Below, in pieces: positions 4,426 through 15,293 of a stretch of 17,402 bases of DNA. Position numbers and translations under genes: made by a program. Within the stretch, counting starts at the first letter, position 1, and each line of letters opens with the position of its first letter. This stretch comes from Octopus sinensis (lineage: Eukaryota): contig NW_021824817.1 of the NCBI RefSeq assembly GCF_006345805.1, forward strand, positions 1-17,402, in the 5' to 3' direction. The notes under the pieces were generated by a model. That model had not been told where the DNA came from, ran no database searches, and worked only from the letters and a program-made list of their open reading frames with translations.

Positions 4426-4461
4426 CTTTCTGTGGAAGAGCGTAGGCTCGAAACGTTAAAG
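4426..4461 (+). ncRNA. Minimal type I hammerhead-like motif (core variant) in a ~190-bp TA-flanked element (4362-4550)
   Basis: CTTT-CTGTGGA-A-GAGC(GTAG)GCTC-GAAAC-GTT-AAAG: stem I CTTT/AAAG, stem II GAGC/GCTC, palindromic ACGT stem III; A6 of CUGANGA replaced by U. Confidence 0.6.
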
Positions 4462-5363
4462 ACTTTTTCACTTCCCGAGCGTTATACTAATACATCTGTT
4501 TGTTGTCTACACCACCTGTCTTCGTCTTTTGTGTTTTTGTGAATTCTTCCTATATATATATATAATATATATATATATATATATATATATATACACACAC
4601 ACACACAATCAAAGGAAGGAAAGAAAGAACAAGGGAAATTTCAAAAGCAGTAACTTTTTATGGCAAAAGAAATTAAATTTCCCGTATTTATGAATTAAAA
4701 ATGTGTAAGCAAAAGTAGAAAGAGTGCTGAATACCTATGATAAATGGGTAAAACGAGGAAAATGCGATTCATTGAAAGGAATTTTTGTCACCACAAAGGA
4801 AAACGATGACTGGCTGTGCAGTGAGGATAGGTAATATTAGATTCAAATTGAAAGCAAGGGACAGGCTGGGTATGCAACTGGAAAGGCAGCCAGTTCCAAA
4901 ACCATCCATCCATCTAAAAGAAGAAAAGCTGAATTTTCAGATATACTATTTCTGCATTGTATTGAGTCAGTACACCATTGTTGGTAAAAATTTGAGCAGG
5001 CGTTATGAACCCCACCACCTAAAATTTTGCATGATTTCGTTCAAAAGTGGTGATCGATTTCTTAATTTGGAAGTGACGTTTTTTTCAAATAAAGCAAAAT
5101 AAATTTTAGTTTCCTGACTTTTATGAAATTATTCATCGAATTACAGTATAGAATTATTAGGTTGTGAAAAAGTCATAACTCTAATACATATATATATATA
5201 TATCAAATTTCACAATATATAATATATGTATAAAATTTAGAGAAAAACCTATTAAACAATTCAATAAAGAAAGATGTTATTCACACCATATAGAAAACAT
5301 ATACTATAAAAAACCTTATTCTAAAAATCAATAAAGTACAATAAATAGTAAATAGTAGTAAAA

Positions 5364-5482
5364 AGACTACGCACGTTTCATGGCTATATTTTCAAATAGA
5401 TAGTAATGATAAAATCAATTCGATTTAAATTAAATCGGACTAAAATTAATTCTATTTAAAAATATAGTCACTCATCTGTTCT
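5364..5482 (-). ncRNA. Type I hammerhead-like motif with long stem II, in a TA-flanked element (~5230-5640)
   Basis: Minus strand: AGAA-CAGATGA-G-TGACTATATTTTTAAATAGA...TCTATTTGAAAATATAGCCA-T-GAAAC-GTGC-GTA-GTCT; 20-bp stem with one mismatch; U4 of core replaced by A. Confidence 0.65.
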
Positions 5483-5643
5483 AAGATAATAAATAATAAA
5501 AAAATAACAACAGAATAAATATAATTATCTTAAATTATGCTAATTATCAAATAAATATATAAAAAAATACGTCTATTAACTATAAATAATCGAAAAATAT
5601 TTAGCAATATTTCTTAAAATAAAAATATAACCTATCATATAAC

Positions 5644-6097
5644 CTATATATATATATATATATATATATATATATATATATATATATATAATATAATAAA
5701 AATGGGACATGGCGATCGTTGTATTCTTTCTTGTTTCGAGGTTCAAAGCCAAACGGCTGGGTGGATTCACATGAAAAATGGCACACATGTAGAGATGGGT
5801 GTATAGATAGGAATGAAATTTGCATTTTTCCTAGCCCCCATACTTACCGAGAAGATCGATTAAAACTTTTTTCTAATGGAATTCCCCTCTTTCTTCAGCA
5901 ATTAAAACAACCAGTTGCTTAGAAGCTGTTTTCTGACGGGGTGGAGCCAGGAAACTTTCATACAGCTAGAGGCTCCAATCGAAACAGGGGACCCAAAATG
6001 ATAAGGTTGAGAAATGCTGTTATAGATTATGCTTAATCAAAAACGATCACGGCCACATCATCCAAACAGACCGGGTGAAACCGGGCTTAGCTGCTAG
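5644..6097 (+). mobile_element. Non-autonomous Helitron
   Basis: 3' end CCGGGTGAAACCGGG hairpin then CTAG (6094-6097) followed by T; 5' end CTATATA..ATAATAAAAATG; internal AAACGGCTGGGTGGATTCACATGAAAAATGGCACA resembles the motif common in invertebrate non-autonomous Helitrons. Canonical 5' TC not cleanly present. Confidence 0.65.
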
Positions 6098-6360
6098 TAT
6101 ATATATATATATATATATATATATATATATATATATATATATATAAGAAAAGGTTGAGTTCTATTTCATTTTTTACTTTGTGCGGTTCCAAAGTTAGATT
6201 TCTAATACAGAGTCTTCATATTAAATTGGTCGCTTACTATTGTAAGTATTTTTCGAATATGAAAATGTTACAAGTATAAAGTGTGTTATCCTATATAAAC
6301 TCAACAAACAATTAAAGATAGAGAAGAAGGGTGTTAAAAGTTTTATAAAATTTTAATCCA

Positions 6361-6477
6361 TGCATACGATCGTTTCGAGCGGTAATATTAATATGTAAGA
6401 AACATGGAAAAAGTTAAGAATTAATTTAATTATAATTACAATTAAATTAATTAAGTATTACCGTTCTTCTCAGTGCA
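6361..6477 (-). ncRNA. Type I hammerhead-like motif with long stem II, in a TA-flanked element (~6145-6780)
   Basis: Minus strand: TGCA-CTGAGA-A-GAACGGTAATA...TATTACCGCTC-GAAAC-GATC-GTA-TGCA; stem I TGCA/TGCA, 11-bp stem II with one mismatch, palindromic ACGATCGT stem III; core 1 nt short of CTGANGAA. Confidence 0.7.
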
Positions 6478-7341
6478 AAAGAAGAATACATGAAAAAGAA
6501 TACATCAGAAGAAAATTATATTGTCACAGAAGACAAGATGGAGTGAGTGTCATATAACATGTTTGGATATTAATAATATGCTTATGAAATGCGAAAGATA
6601 AAAACATGCTTAGGTAGTGTTGAGTTTAGATGTGTAAGAACTATAACTGATGTGGCTAACGGATATTTGGAAATATAAGTGAAAAATGTTTAAGAAACAT
6701 TCTCTCTATTAAGTAATAAAGTAATATACATTCCAATAAAGCATATATCGTAAGAAGTAAAATATAATATGTATGTATATACATACATACATACATACAT
6801 ACATACATACATACAATATATAATATATATATATATATATATATATATATATAATATATATTATATATATATACATACATACATACATATATGTGTGTAT
6901 ATATATACATGCATATATATAAGTGTTTGTATAAAATAAATAAGTGTCCAATGGGACAGCATAACTATATTTAAATTTATATATGATTTGACAGTTATGA
7001 GTGGTATATAATGAAAATAATGAAAATAAATTATGGTGTATATTAAAAAGAAATTATTTAAAAAAAATCCTAGAATAAGAAATAAATCGTTTGTATAATT
7101 TTATATAAGTTACTTGAGATTTAAATGACAAAAAAATTTAGCGTTGTGAGGGAGAAATTTTTAGGTTAATACAACGGGAAAACAAGATTTGTTATTAGTT
7201 AAAAAGCGTTATATTCGTTTGTATGAAATAAGTCTAAGAGGAAAGACAATAAAAATTAAAATATTATAGAGTTGAGAAAGACAATATTGAAAGAAATTAC
7301 TGAACAACCCCTAAAAAAACAAAGACAATATTAAAAACCCA

Positions 7342-7430
7342 CAAGTACTGGGGACGACTGAACTTTTTAGCGTGTTGACCAGCATGGCCGCTGTTCAATA
7401 ACTGAAACAAGTAAAAGATATAAAGATAAA
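7342..7430 (+). mobile_element. Diverged SINE 3' tail fragment
   Basis: CCAGCATGGCCGCTGTTCAATAACTGAAACAAGTAAAAGATA matches the family A terminus. Confidence 0.65.
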
Positions 7431-7437
7431 TGATACA

Positions 7438-13540: not shown

Positions 13541-14034
13541 TCTGCTGCATCAGAAATCTGCAATGGCTCCATATCTACCATCTCGGCTATAATCTTGGAG
13601 CCCCAGTAATCCGCTACAGCACTTACCTAGTGTACCTAATCGATAAGATCACTATGTAGTAAGCTGCCATAATTTGTATATTATTATATATATATATATA
13701 TATATATAATATATATATATATATATATATATATGTGTATATATATATATAATATATATATATATATATATGTATGCATCATTATACATTCTTAGGGTGA
13801 TTTACTCTTAAGTGTCCCTAATCTGTACATGAATTTGTTTCCCTACTTTAATTATAGCTTGCTACATATCATATTTTATATATTTGCTCTTCAACCCACC
13901 TTTTCTTGAAGTATGCATGCATACACTGGCATCTACACTCTTATATATATTTACAGTTGTATTTATTTCAGCTTTTTATTCCTTTTTTCACAATTTTTTT
14001 TTATTTTCTTTCCATATTTTCGGCTTGAACACGA

Positions 14035-14229
14035 GGCGGCGAGCTCGCAGAACCGTTAGTGTGCCGGACAAAATGCTTAGCGGGTTTTGGACTGGATTAA
14101 CGTTCTGAGCTCAAGAACCGAGGAAATCAACCTTGGCTTTCATCTTTTCGGGGTCAATGAAATAAGTAAAAGTCAAGTACTGGCGTCGATGCAATCGACT
14201 GGCGTTCGCCCCCACAAATTTCTGGTCTA
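14035..14229 (+). mobile_element. tRNA-derived SINE, family B (Meta-domain-like central block)
   Basis: GGCGGCGAGCTCGCAGAA head, decayed B box GAGCTCAAG, central GCTTTCATCTTTTCGGGGTCAATGAAATAAGTA resembling the conserved block of Meta/Sauria-type SINEs. Confidence 0.7.
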
Positions 14230-14340
14230 AAAGATTTTCTTCTTGTGTACATATTTCTCGTCTTAGTTATACCTCTTTTCGTACGAACTATGAAATATTT
14301 CGCATACCATAGTTTCGTAGTAATTGAAGCGCATGTTATC

Positions 14341-14525
14341 ATTATAATTATTATTATTATTATTGAGTTAGAGAGCAGGGCATGCCATCAAAGTGACATT
14401 GGGATAAAATATACGAAGCCCAGTATATCCATCATGACTACCCGTCTGATAAGGGGACACCAGGCACATGCATCACAACAATATGTGCGCAACATAGTGG
14501 TCTCATATCAAGATAAGTAGCGCAT
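14341..14525 (-). mobile_element. (AAT)n-tailed repeat, copy 3
   Basis: 14365-14525 is the reverse complement of 270-431; (ATT)n tail at 14341-14364. Confidence 0.85.
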
Positions 14526-14733
14526 ACAAACATACATACATACATACATACATACATACATACATACATACATACATACTTACATGCATGCATGCATACA
14601 TACATACATACATACATACGTACGTACATACATACATACATACATACATACATACATACATACATGCATGCATGCATACATACATACATACATACACATA
14701 CATACATACATACATACATACATACATACATAC
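14524..14733. repeat. (TACA)n microsatellite
   Basis: Direct reading. Confidence 0.97.
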
Positions 14734-14827
14734 AGGAACGTTGGATCTAAGTTAGAAAGCAGTTCTTTGTCTACTGGCAAAAACTCTTGAAATAACCTGA
14801 ATAATGACACATACATACATACACACA

Positions 14828-14933
14828 CTAAATTTACTCGTGTATAAGCCGCACAATTGTATACTAGATGTTAAATGCAAAGGAAAGGAAAAGGAATAAA
14901 AATGGATTGCGACTTAAACACCAGCATATAAGG
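14828..14933. mobile_element. ~106-bp Tc2/pogo-type MITE
   Basis: Left CTAAATTTACTCGTGTATAAGCCGCA vs right TGCGACTTAAACACCAGCATATAAGG followed by TA; decayed TIRs of the CCGTATTT.. type. Confidence 0.6.
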
Positions 14934-15019
14934 TAAATTCTCTATTCTACAAGCTGAGTTATTTGTTTTTATTGTCCCACATTTCGAAGAGTATTGTTTT
15001 AAAAATTAAATTAACTCCC

Positions 15020-15293
15020 TAAATTTACATTATTTACATTTGACGTATATTTATCCTCATCTTGTTTGTTGTTAACACAACGTTTCGGCTGATATACCCT
15101 CCAGCCTTCATCAGGTGTCTTGGAGGAAATTTCGAACCTGGGGGTCTCATTCTTAAGGTATTTTTCGATGTTATTATCATTATTATTATTATTATTATTA
15201 TTATTATTATTATTATTATTATTATTGTTGTTGTTGTTGTTGGTGTTGTTGTTGTTGTTGTTGTTGTTGTTCAGGTCACTGCCTGGAATCGAA
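15020..15293 (-). mobile_element. SINE-like element: B-box remnant + (AAC)/(AAT) microsatellite + hammerhead-bearing 3' part
   Basis: Minus strand: TTCGATTCCAGGCAGTGACC (tRNA T-arm/B-box-like), (AAC)n(AAT)n at 15170-15271, then the hammerhead and a short AATGTAAAT repeat terminus. Confidence 0.55.
15074..15119 (-). ncRNA. Minimal type I hammerhead ribozyme motif, intact core
   Basis: Minus strand: GACAC-CTGATGA-A-GGCTG(GAGGGTATAT)CAGCC-GAAAC-GTT-GTGTT; stem I GACAC/GTGTT, stem II GGCTG/CAGCC, palindromic AACGTT stem III, NUH = GUU. Confidence 0.85.

Follow-up and report, generated by a model that had tools for sequence, protein, structure and literature searches.

Hammerhead motifs in the window

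The window, by which we mean the whole analysed stretch of 17,402 nucleotides from Octopus sinensis, carries four clear hammerhead motifs that belong to four repeat families (A-D). The family A motif (4426..4461, plus strand, C3 at 4430) has a type I fold with the variant core CUGUGGA, in which the A6U change is fixed in the family, and a predicted cut after 4457. The other three lie on the minus strand, namely a type I fold with a long stem II in family B (5364..5482, C3 at 5478), a type I fold with a long and branched stem II in family C (6361..6477, C3 at 6473), and a canonical minimal type I hammerhead with a palindromic AACGUU stem III and a predicted cut after 15079 in family D (15074..15119, C3 at 15114). 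Only the family D core is intact in the window; the family A copy has U at position 6, the mutated family B copy has U4A and a broken first stem I pair, and the family C copy has G8A. All four motifs are solo in the window.

A type I descriptor tolerating one core change, which was tuned after the window had been seen, matched exactly these four window sites and gave no match in 200 local dinucleotide shuffles of the window, nor in three shuffles each of the chromosomal and small-contig background sets described below. A stricter type I descriptor kept just two of them, 15074- without any core change and 4426+ with one. Counted over family loci chosen as the highest-scoring matches to the window copy, and with the bias that this brings to core counts, the core CUGANGA / GAAA / UH was canonical in 21 of 25 copies of family B, 14 of 25 of family C and 23 of 25 of family D, and the family majorities give back the canonical core for all three; family A showed U6 in 27/30 copies and a canonical core in 1/30, with all other core positions intact in 25/30.

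Within-family pair counts place stems I-III around the core. Across families stem pairing goes beyond permutation; within families the stems barely vary and little covariation is shown. Specifically, in an unselected set of 12 distinct core-plus-palindrome candidates stem I had 3.0 of 4 positions paired versus 1.67 after permutation (reached in 0 of 5000 permutations) and stem II 4.2 of 6 versus 3.26 (3 of 5000). It could be argued that such motifs arise by chance in DNA that is AT-rich and full of repeats: Rfam gave no hammerhead among the window matches listed (150 of 178), three of the four window cores are imperfect, and 4426+ and 15074- have unremarkable folds (z -0.18 and -1.59, respectively; compare -3.45 for 5364- and -2.83 for 6361-). 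We consider this scarcely credible, and refuted for the four clear motifs, because of the empty shuffles, the canonical cores restored by the majorities of B, C and D, and the stems that pair across unrelated families. The four motifs are real type I hammerhead folds, with the short stem I and (near-)palindromic stem III that the earlier note had described. As solo copies they are nevertheless predicted to cut poorly unaided; in three ordinary RNA-seq runs, which are a weak test of self-cleavage, read ends did not pile up at the family D cut site.

Density and genome-wide abundance

With the same tolerant descriptor we obtained 19 matches in 730 kb of background (73 fixed-position chromosomal stretches of 10 kb) and 14 in 200 kb of 20 similar small contigs. 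The four motifs in the 17.4 kb of the window compare with 0.45 expected from the chromosomal stretches (Poisson P=0.0012) and 1.2 expected from the small contigs (P=0.035). At about nine-fold over the chromosomal average the window, which the earlier note had called unusually dense, lies in the upper tail, but about 190 of 156,000 genome windows would equal its density by chance. We estimate the genome total of such motifs at about 70,000 (95% range 43,000-110,000). Given the roughly nine-fold excess, shared TA targeting or nesting may add some clustering beyond chance, but the cluster in the window is mostly ordinary transposon debris.

Families A-D and their links to coding PLEs

In agreement with the earlier note, there is no PLE ORF in the window, where tblastn with three PLE proteins found none. 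The link to autonomous PLEs that it had proposed to seek was established elsewhere in the genome: for all of A-D, RT and C-terminal GIY-YIG frames of the PLE (EN+) type, broken into pieces for B and C, were found upstream of the unit at loci outside the window. The clade names used below were assigned from motifs by comparison with PMC8557442, not from a tree.

Family A (4362..4550, plus strand) is, by its copies and ORF links, the 5′-truncated 3′ end of a Neptune-like PLE, flanked by (TA)n tracts. A first look gave 1011 candidates, with 40 scored at 90-100%. Locus L167 connects the family A end to an EN frame, and an A-like end lay downstream of the frame in 12/12 loci picked by protein. Of nine longer Neptune-like loci, four hold a pair of hammerheads in direct orientation, spaced by about 4.4-4.5 kb and 94.5-99.4% identical, as the direct pLTRs of full-length relatives. 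In a sister family (L322), an 835-aa frame matched RVT_1 with E 9.5e-8, which passes the cutoff, and GIY-YIG with E 0.006, which does not; its CSRPRCRTC linker and the CISCSLC before YIG correspond to the Neptune CX2-5CxxC linker and two cysteines between GIY and YIG. The start hot spot of family A also bears a small hairpin.

Families B and C are likewise the ends of Hydra-like PLEs, a name that comes from the motifs of partial frames. Family B (5199..5636, minus strand; 1762 candidates) is a 5′-truncated 3′ end, and three of 25 loci have at least 1.4 kb upstream in common, reaching the RT thumb, a CxCx5C linker and GIY-YIG. Family C (6146..7286, minus strand; 596 candidates) is the 3′ part of a long AT-rich 3′UTR with an internal microsatellite (6762-6921). 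The upstream segment is followed by C in 22/25 loci, L291 and L294 are unbroken from the EN frame to family C, and a head-to-tail C dimer occurs at one place (L067/L068). In both families broken RT and EN pieces are continuous with the unit, from the CxCx5C linker and EN into the motif. The linkers (CTCRDKTKC and CNCRNPNTC) and the EN end (CYLC/CKLC, CRH) show the Hydra CxCX5C, CxxC and CxH pattern with no CCHH. The atlas matches of B and C at 0.96-0.97 include GIY-YIG clusters, one with PF01541 in 18% of its members.

Family D (15023..15295, minus strand; 3187 candidates) is the 3′ end of a Penelope/Poseidon-like PLE and comprises the remnant of a tRNA-like head (B box at about 15285-15293), an internal (CAA)n(TAA)n and a hammerhead tail. 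Among loci picked by protein the tail lay downstream of the frame in 11/12 and the head in 10/12, and the D tail is identical to the end of its coding partner. The proteins at L329 and L170 have no linker finger and show YSC/CSCGRLYKGET straight after the thumb, i.e. CxC before a YIG-like motif. Pfam gave no match for the 551-aa D protein, nor for eight short broken ORF pieces; the atlas matched HTH_animal, RVT_1 and GIY-YIG clusters at 0.95-0.97 for L329.

The tRNA-like A/B-box head in the 3′UTR, at which short copies tend to start, is a less usual feature and raises the possibility of a PLE-driven SINE. Short D copies would then be true SINEs, with a Pol III transcript starting at the head within the Poseidon-like 3′UTR, a hammerhead tail, and movement in trans by the RT/EN of the partner. 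A and B boxes at 44-46 nt spacing (strict consensus) occur in ten loci (4/12 ORF-linked loci and 6/25 D loci) versus 17/4672 background windows. Among loci chosen without regard to D (1.68 Mb), the start lies at 0 to -3 in five of the 11 alignments of the head, inside the head in five and upstream in one, and 0/16 rows reach more than 3 nt above the head. Short D copies are also commoner (nine in 930 kb) than frame fragments (2/93 loci). However, a GCCC-AC-GGGC hairpin lies exactly at the start point, and the commonest letters upstream of the head in RNA reads form a head-to-head palindrome centred on the hairpin start, so that snap-back termination of reverse transcription yields the same pile-up; the similar small hairpin of family A at its own hot spot points the same way. 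Neither ARAGORN nor Rfam calls the head a tRNA, the window copy starts inside the B box, and the RNA reads are strand-balanced with 75% running into unlike flanks. We regard the SINE reading as a serious contender that falls somewhat short of an even chance. A wider form of it is a little less probable still, namely that a Poseidon-like PLE with a tRNA-like Pol III promoter in its own 3′UTR emits a hammerhead SINE of about 280 nt which, mobilised in trans, now outnumbers the PLE (about 30,000 copies), while a young and abundant Neptune-like family keeps a crippled A6U hammerhead as an RT binding or priming signal.

Weak motifs and families E-G

Three weaker motifs (1402+, 5933+ and 10510-) had also been taken for hammerheads. 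None of them passes the strict or the tolerant descriptor, and family majorities do not restore them.

The motif at 5933+ lies in family E (5688..6097, plus strand; 1722 candidates), a non-autonomous Helitron-like element as seen from the termini of 20 copies. Helitrons have a 5′ TC and a 3′ hairpin followed by CTAG, and are inserted before T without TSD. Family E copies end in hairpin-CTAG before T in 19/20 cases, with the hairpin about 11 nt upstream, and start with TC in 12/20. The hammerhead was rejected here, with A9G and no U16.1 in the family majority; a chance match fits.

The motif at 10510- is part of family G (10507..11817, minus strand), a truncated RLE-type non-LTR retrotransposon that, by its motifs, is presumably HERO-like. 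Its frame at 11030-11458 has 91-94% protein identity to frames at L154 and L161. All 20 of 20 copies share one end point, with the motif as the exact 3′ terminus. This candidate was rejected as well, being an RLE LINE 3′ end with no stem I partner, and again a chance match fits.

Family F (1307..1590, plus strand; 4651 candidates) is the 3′ part of a non-coding PLE-like unit of about 650 nt plus a TA tract, often in partial tandems. Its motif at 1402+ has the degenerate core UCGAAGA, and a family F hammerhead is doubtful. In 20 loci we found no upstream PLE frame of its own; an upstream partial copy on the same strand was present in eight. A second, older piece of the F lineage, missed in the earlier note, lies at 3258..3551 (plus strand).

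Probable insertion from uncut RNA

Taken together, the four clear motifs are very probably hammerhead folds in the 3′ ends (pseudo-LTRs, pLTRs) of four different protein-coding PLE families dispersed throughout the genome, likely 5′-truncated copies left by early-stopping reverse transcription of uncut RNA. The hammerhead lies inside the pLTR and the 5′ ends differ from copy to copy, as in PLEs, and inverted partner copies are common in B, C and D. Beyond the predicted cut site each clear unit runs on for about 55-215 nt in the 3′ direction, and the unit ends do not match the cut sites. The RNA templates were likely uncut, because every insertion continues past the cleavage site; together with the lack of a read-end pile-up this leaves the earlier description of the units as ribozyme-processed unsupported.

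The RT/endonuclease of the element would nick AT-rich DNA and start the cDNA at a point 55-215 nt 3′ of the ribozyme, which we infer would therefore be present in nearly all copies, however short. Neptune- and Hydra-like families would enter (TA)n, probably via the linker motif; for the Neptune-like family, which is young, a short terminal TA seed probably guides entry as well. The Poseidon-like family does not target TA. A 3′ flank with (TA)3 or more was seen in 24/30 copies of A, 18/25 of C and 18/20 of F versus 9.8% of random positions, but in only 1/25 of D, and the proposed TA preference holds to that extent. Similarly, the proposed 200-600 bp units mostly bounded by (TA)n were found only in part: the 6762-6921 tract lies inside the 6361- element, which runs to 7286, and the 15074- element likewise contains the (TAA)n/(CAA)n of 15171-15271. 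With a minimal palindromic stem III, cleavage is predicted to require dimer formation or the help of protein in tandem precursors; the solo window copies, three with core changes, would be inert. The four families would have accumulated independently in this contig, which is rich in TA and in repeats. Counting against truncation, the 5′ ends are not evenly spread: they pile up at the D head start and in A at -61 to -67 from the core (9/31 copies), and discrete short templates may therefore exist.

A rival that follows the earlier note would have separate non-autonomous retrozymes here: hammerheads cut their RNAs, which circularise and insert again, and TA tracts grow in the process. Tandem hammerhead arrays do exist in the genome, though for families other than A-D (periods of about 400 bp at L254 and 530 bp at L258), as does the C dimer (L067); family F is non-coding with partial tandems, and animal retrozymes are derived from pLTRs in a 2026 preprint (bioRxiv 10.64898/2026.07.22.740005). 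However, the clear motifs are solo, PLE frames lie upstream of their families at other loci, unit ends and cut sites do not coincide, and D avoids TA and shows no pile-up of read begins or ends in three RNA runs. Among the RNA joints listed for D (all but 35), there was no unit-length back-joint. Retrozymes are therefore improbable, and for A, B and C largely refuted because of the ORF links. The retroelement nature of the motifs stands, but the clear ones are mostly truncated ends of coding PLEs rather than separate non-autonomous elements; the non-autonomous idea fits family F and possibly short D.

Comparison with known systems

Both the presence of hammerheads in PLE pLTRs and the targeting of TA have been published before. 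In the portions of Cervera and de la Pena 2014 (PMC4209133) drawn on here, minimal pLTR hammerheads are mostly single, widespread, of low activity and dimeric, and they resemble ours in the short stem I, G10.1-C11.1, a palindromic or absent loop 3, the extra base after A9 (in A and D), and many unrelated consensus families per genome with some inverted pairs 100-700 bp apart. The very long stem II (about 90 nt) of B and C differs, and the fixed A6U core of family A is not among the hammerheads described in those portions; such a core in a young family is a less usual feature.

The Neptune, Penelope/Poseidon and Hydra clades (Craig et al. 2021, PMC8557442) share with our families RT with C-terminal GIY-YIG, clade-type linkers, 5′ truncation, partial tandems, inverted 5′ copies and (TA)n insertion, which in Hydra elements is into TA. 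Hydra elements are generally <3 kb, whereas family C appears to exceed 3 kb, with a 3′UTR alone >2 kb and internal microsatellites; the tRNA-like head in the D 3′UTR is another difference. In the Anolis Poseidon element PAc (Frangieh et al. 2024, PMC11167929), reverse transcription likewise begins 3′ of the hammerhead, the template for insertion is uncut RNA, the HHR is dispensable for insertion in vitro and read ends are absent at the cut site; the ORF start of PAc overlaps the ribozyme.

Non-LTR retrozymes (Cervera and de la Pena 2020, PMC7229834; Li et al. 2026, bioRxiv 10.64898/2026.07.22.740005) are similarly non-coding and pLTR-derived, 170-600 nt long with a type I hammerhead. Unlike the window motifs, each of which stands alone and has a coding PLE as its continuation, they form tandem arrays yielding circular RNAs; nearer to them are family F and the arrays at L254 and L258. 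As far as the summary in PMC6765202 goes, the schistosome SM-alpha/Sj-alpha SINE-like retroposons combine a promoter of the Pol III type with a type I hammerhead downstream of it, as in short D, but they form tandem repeats and their canonical ribozyme is efficient, whereas D is dispersed and minimal and doubles as the 3′UTR of a coding PLE.

Implications

Hammerhead clusters in microsatellite-rich animal genomes are the expected fallout of PLE activity. Judged by their motifs, this genome has had active members of three PLE clades, one of which, Hydra, is little known. Near-intact elements with canonical and A6U cores side by side offer a natural test of the role of the PLE hammerhead. If short D is indeed a Pol III SINE born in the 3′UTR of its partner, it would provide a clear route from a pLTR to a SINE or retrozyme.

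Hammerhead motifs in the window

The four clear hammerhead motifs, 4426+ (family A), 5364- (B), 6361- (C) and 15074- (D), constitute a genuine motif class, as the earlier note had proposed. A strict type I descriptor matched 15074-, whose core is intact, and 4426+, with one core change, and a relaxed type I descriptor, which tolerated a single change in the core and a single mismatch in the stems and was tuned after inspection of the window, recovered precisely these four in the window and none in 200 shuffles. The stems were checked in 21 candidates (12 distinct) from 930 kb of background at fixed positions, for which exact core strings plus a palindromic loop were the sole selection criteria. 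Pairing was far above permutation for both stem I, where 0 of 5000 permutations reached the value, and stem II (3 of 5000). The Rfam scan of the window showed no hammerhead among the matches listed (150 of 178); mir-297-type rows were discarded as microsatellite artefacts.

Every unit belongs to a repeat family in its own genome, with 596-4651 first-look candidates per family, of which 40 were scored. The best-scoring copies have a canonical core in 21/25 cases for B, 14/25 for C and 23/25 for D, so that the window changes U4A (B) and G8A (C) represent decay, and U6 is the family state in A (27/30 copies). The window motifs are of a known kind, namely hammerheads of the pseudo-LTRs (pLTRs) of Penelope-like elements (PLEs) in truncated copies, and are new members from three clades.

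Clade assignment of families A to D

The absence of a PLE frame from the window was confirmed. The clear motifs had also been regarded as separate mini-elements, which for the most part does not hold, since family relatives of A-D run into PLE reverse transcriptase (RT) or GIY-YIG endonuclease (EN) frames elsewhere. Relatives of A extend 5' across a UTR rich in C and reach the frame of an endonuclease, and an A-like end was located downstream of the frame in 12/12 loci picked by EN protein. Four of nine longer fetches were 4.4-4.5-kb elements with two direct repeats of 94.5-99.4% identity and a hammerhead in each. The 835-aa frame of one such relative, L322, matched Pfam RVT_1 and, weakly, GIY-YIG, with a CX4CxxC linker. 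For B, 3/25 loci continue at least 1.4 kb upstream into an RT thumb, a CxCx5C linker and EN. The C element reaches 7286 in the window, with the (TA)/(CATA) tract at 6762-6921 internal to it, and extends more than 1.5 kb beyond that point at other loci; the EN frame was reached in 3/5 extended loci, two of them continuous as far as the hammerhead. The D tail was found downstream of a Poseidon-like frame in 11/12 protein-picked loci. Judged by motifs rather than by a tree, D appears to be Poseidon-like and, following the clade descriptions in PMC8557442, A appears Neptune-like, and B and C appear to fit the Hydra clade (CxCX5C, no CCHH, TA insertion). Pfam gave no match for 8/8 short PLE pieces and 2/3 longer frames.

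A young Neptune-like family with an A6U core (L322, L323, L335 and L336, e.g. G000:C10:76459300-76467700) has many near-identical copies, open frames of up to ~1000 codons and pLTRs 95-99% identical, and has likely been active recently. L166:1-3330 represents another family of Hydra-like type, has its own AT-rich 3'UTR of 2.2 kb and its own canonical hammerhead, and was therefore rejected as the ORF of C, which is merely fused to it in inverted orientation. Its truncated 5' end is joined to the inverted C tail across a short microhomology, possibly by a template switch between families. At window 16127-16430 an inverted head-to-head pair of ~90 bp surrounds (AAC)n(AAT)n, its outer end being similar to the B-family 3' tail and adjoining (TA)n; this is a further PLE-type insertion, without a ribozyme.

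Insertion sites and templates

The proposed preference for TA tracts is family-specific. Three or more TA units at the 3' end were found in 24/30 copies of A, 18/25 of C, 18/20 of F (1402+) and 11/20 of E (5933+) against 9.8% at random, and the preference fails for D (1/25) and G (10510-; 2/20); B, with an ill-defined end, gave 6/25. The internal junction between pLTRs of the young Neptune-like family is TTATATATT whereas genomic 3' ends continue into (TA)n, a pattern suggesting that a TA seed acts as primer.

Processing by the ribozyme, also assumed earlier, is not borne out. The units run past the predicted cut by ~93 nt in A, 165 in B, 215 in C and at least 56 in D, which argues that the insertion templates would have been RNA that was uncut or re-ligated. 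This resembles anole Poseidon, for which PMC11167929 describes that reverse transcription begins downstream of the ribozyme on an uncut template, that ribozyme mutants still insert normally, and that cleavage is protein-dependent, with no read ends at the cut site. By analogy with PMC4209133, the minimal palindromic stem III would predict dimer dependence. RNA reads on a D copy (8966, 7206 and 6555 from ~6% of each of three runs of one study, under another organism label, B) were balanced in direction, 75% extended into unlike flanks, and in these runs no pile-up of read beginnings or ends was seen. This fits passive read-through, the test being weak because the libraries are of unstated strandedness and ribozyme-made ends can be lost from libraries of this kind.

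Weak motifs

The three weaker motifs failed both descriptors. 5933+ lies inside the 400-bp element E, whose copies end in hairpin-CTAG|T (19/20) and begin with TC (12/20), features of Helitron ends; E is Helitron-like, and a hammerhead is ruled out by the family's A9G and missing U16.1. 10510- is the exact 3' end (20/20 copies) of an RLE-type LINE with its frame at 11030-11817, HERO-like by its motifs, and has no stem I partner. At this terminus (window 10507-10610, minus strand) GAAA...CUGAUGA...GAAA...UA is kept in almost all of 20 copies without hammerhead stems, and the LINE 3'UTR carries a 105-bp tandem duplication (10794-11006) that is missing in L161.

Family F is a non-coding unit of ~650 nt, TA-ended in 18/20, with inverted copies and, in 8/20, same-strand partial tandems. 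No frame of its own was found among 20 upstream-picked loci, and a Neptune-like frame upstream of F at L131 was not continuous with it. Of all the units, F is the likeliest to be a non-autonomous derivative of a PLE, its core (UCGAAGA) and offset stem I being doubtful. Inspection by eye also spoke against a permuted, type II arrangement in F and G, as no stem I is formed by the linker between UH and CUGAUGA. Conserved in the F lineage (window 1398-1470 and 3258-3310; L144) are GAAA followed by a short stem, UA, a linker of 16 nt and CUGAUGA-A-GGG, so both half-cores are present in permuted order, which standard hammerhead folds do not fit; an upstream helix appears by eye to covary.

Motif density and other repeats

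The motifs had been called unusually dense. Four in 17.4 kb do fall in the upper tail, compared with 19 in 730 kb of chromosomes (0.45 expected, P=0.0012) and 14 in 200 kb of small contigs (1.2 expected, P=0.035; two tandem arrays account for 8 of the 14), but ~190 windows with at least four motifs are expected by chance, and this window was picked for the trait. The genome-wide estimate is ~70,000 motifs (43,000-110,000). The two arrays, L254 (about 7460-9290, ~400-bp period) and L258 (about 2560-5580, ~530-bp period), consist of units 92-98% identical, in which the hammerheads are canonical type I and have a long stem II and a palindromic loop of 6 nt. They are putative retrozyme-like satellites and would surpass all window units as circular-RNA candidates.

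The window, a whole contig of 17,402 bp in the 2.72-Gb genome, is packed with microsatellites and dispersed repeats, the types of which resemble those of octopus. Common ones occur at 7430-8048, 3082-3257, 3540-4080 and 9446-10070 and include, judged by its motifs, a Tc1/mariner-like remnant, and very abundant SINE-like repeats with up to 133 matches in 930 kb. Another LINE fragment lies at 16397-17016 (+; zf-RVT, E 7e-5, below cutoff); 9/10 window frames had no Pfam match.

The tRNA-like head of D and the A6U core

In the D 3'UTR a tRNA-like head, which has an A box and a B box, is followed by (TAA)n and then by the hammerhead. The boxes are spaced 44-46 nt apart in 10 loci, against 17/4672 background windows, and in loci not picked for D, with one copy (L153) counted twice, alignments start within 3 nt of the first base of the head in 5/11, inside it in 5/11 and upstream in 1/11. 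Four rows end within the TAA tract because the alignments failed to bridge it. Clustered starts and box spacing suggest that short D copies are a Pol III SINE beginning at the head, and PMC6765202 offers a precedent in schistosome SM-alpha, likewise Pol III with a hammerhead. However, snap-back of the RT would explain the starts equally well, given that a small hairpin coincides with this position and that the RNA reads contain palindromes in head-to-head arrangement. Neither ARAGORN, run on 7 loci, nor the Rfam scans recognised a tRNA. At L103:1340-1720, A>G differs at 19-24 places and T>C at 14-15 in the RNA reads, versus 3 and 1 places in the contig set; A-to-I editing of inverted D copies is a possible cause.

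A6U is common to A and a near-intact sister (CUGUUGA 19, CUGUGGA 16 and CUGUAGA 3 of 44 contexts); in a sister family at greater distance the core is CCGACGA or CUGACGA. For a natural A6C hammerhead, slow cleavage is known (PMC3088659). In the papers searched, no description of the head or of the A6U core was found, and either may already have been described. The tRNA-like head and the A6U core are two side features worth testing.
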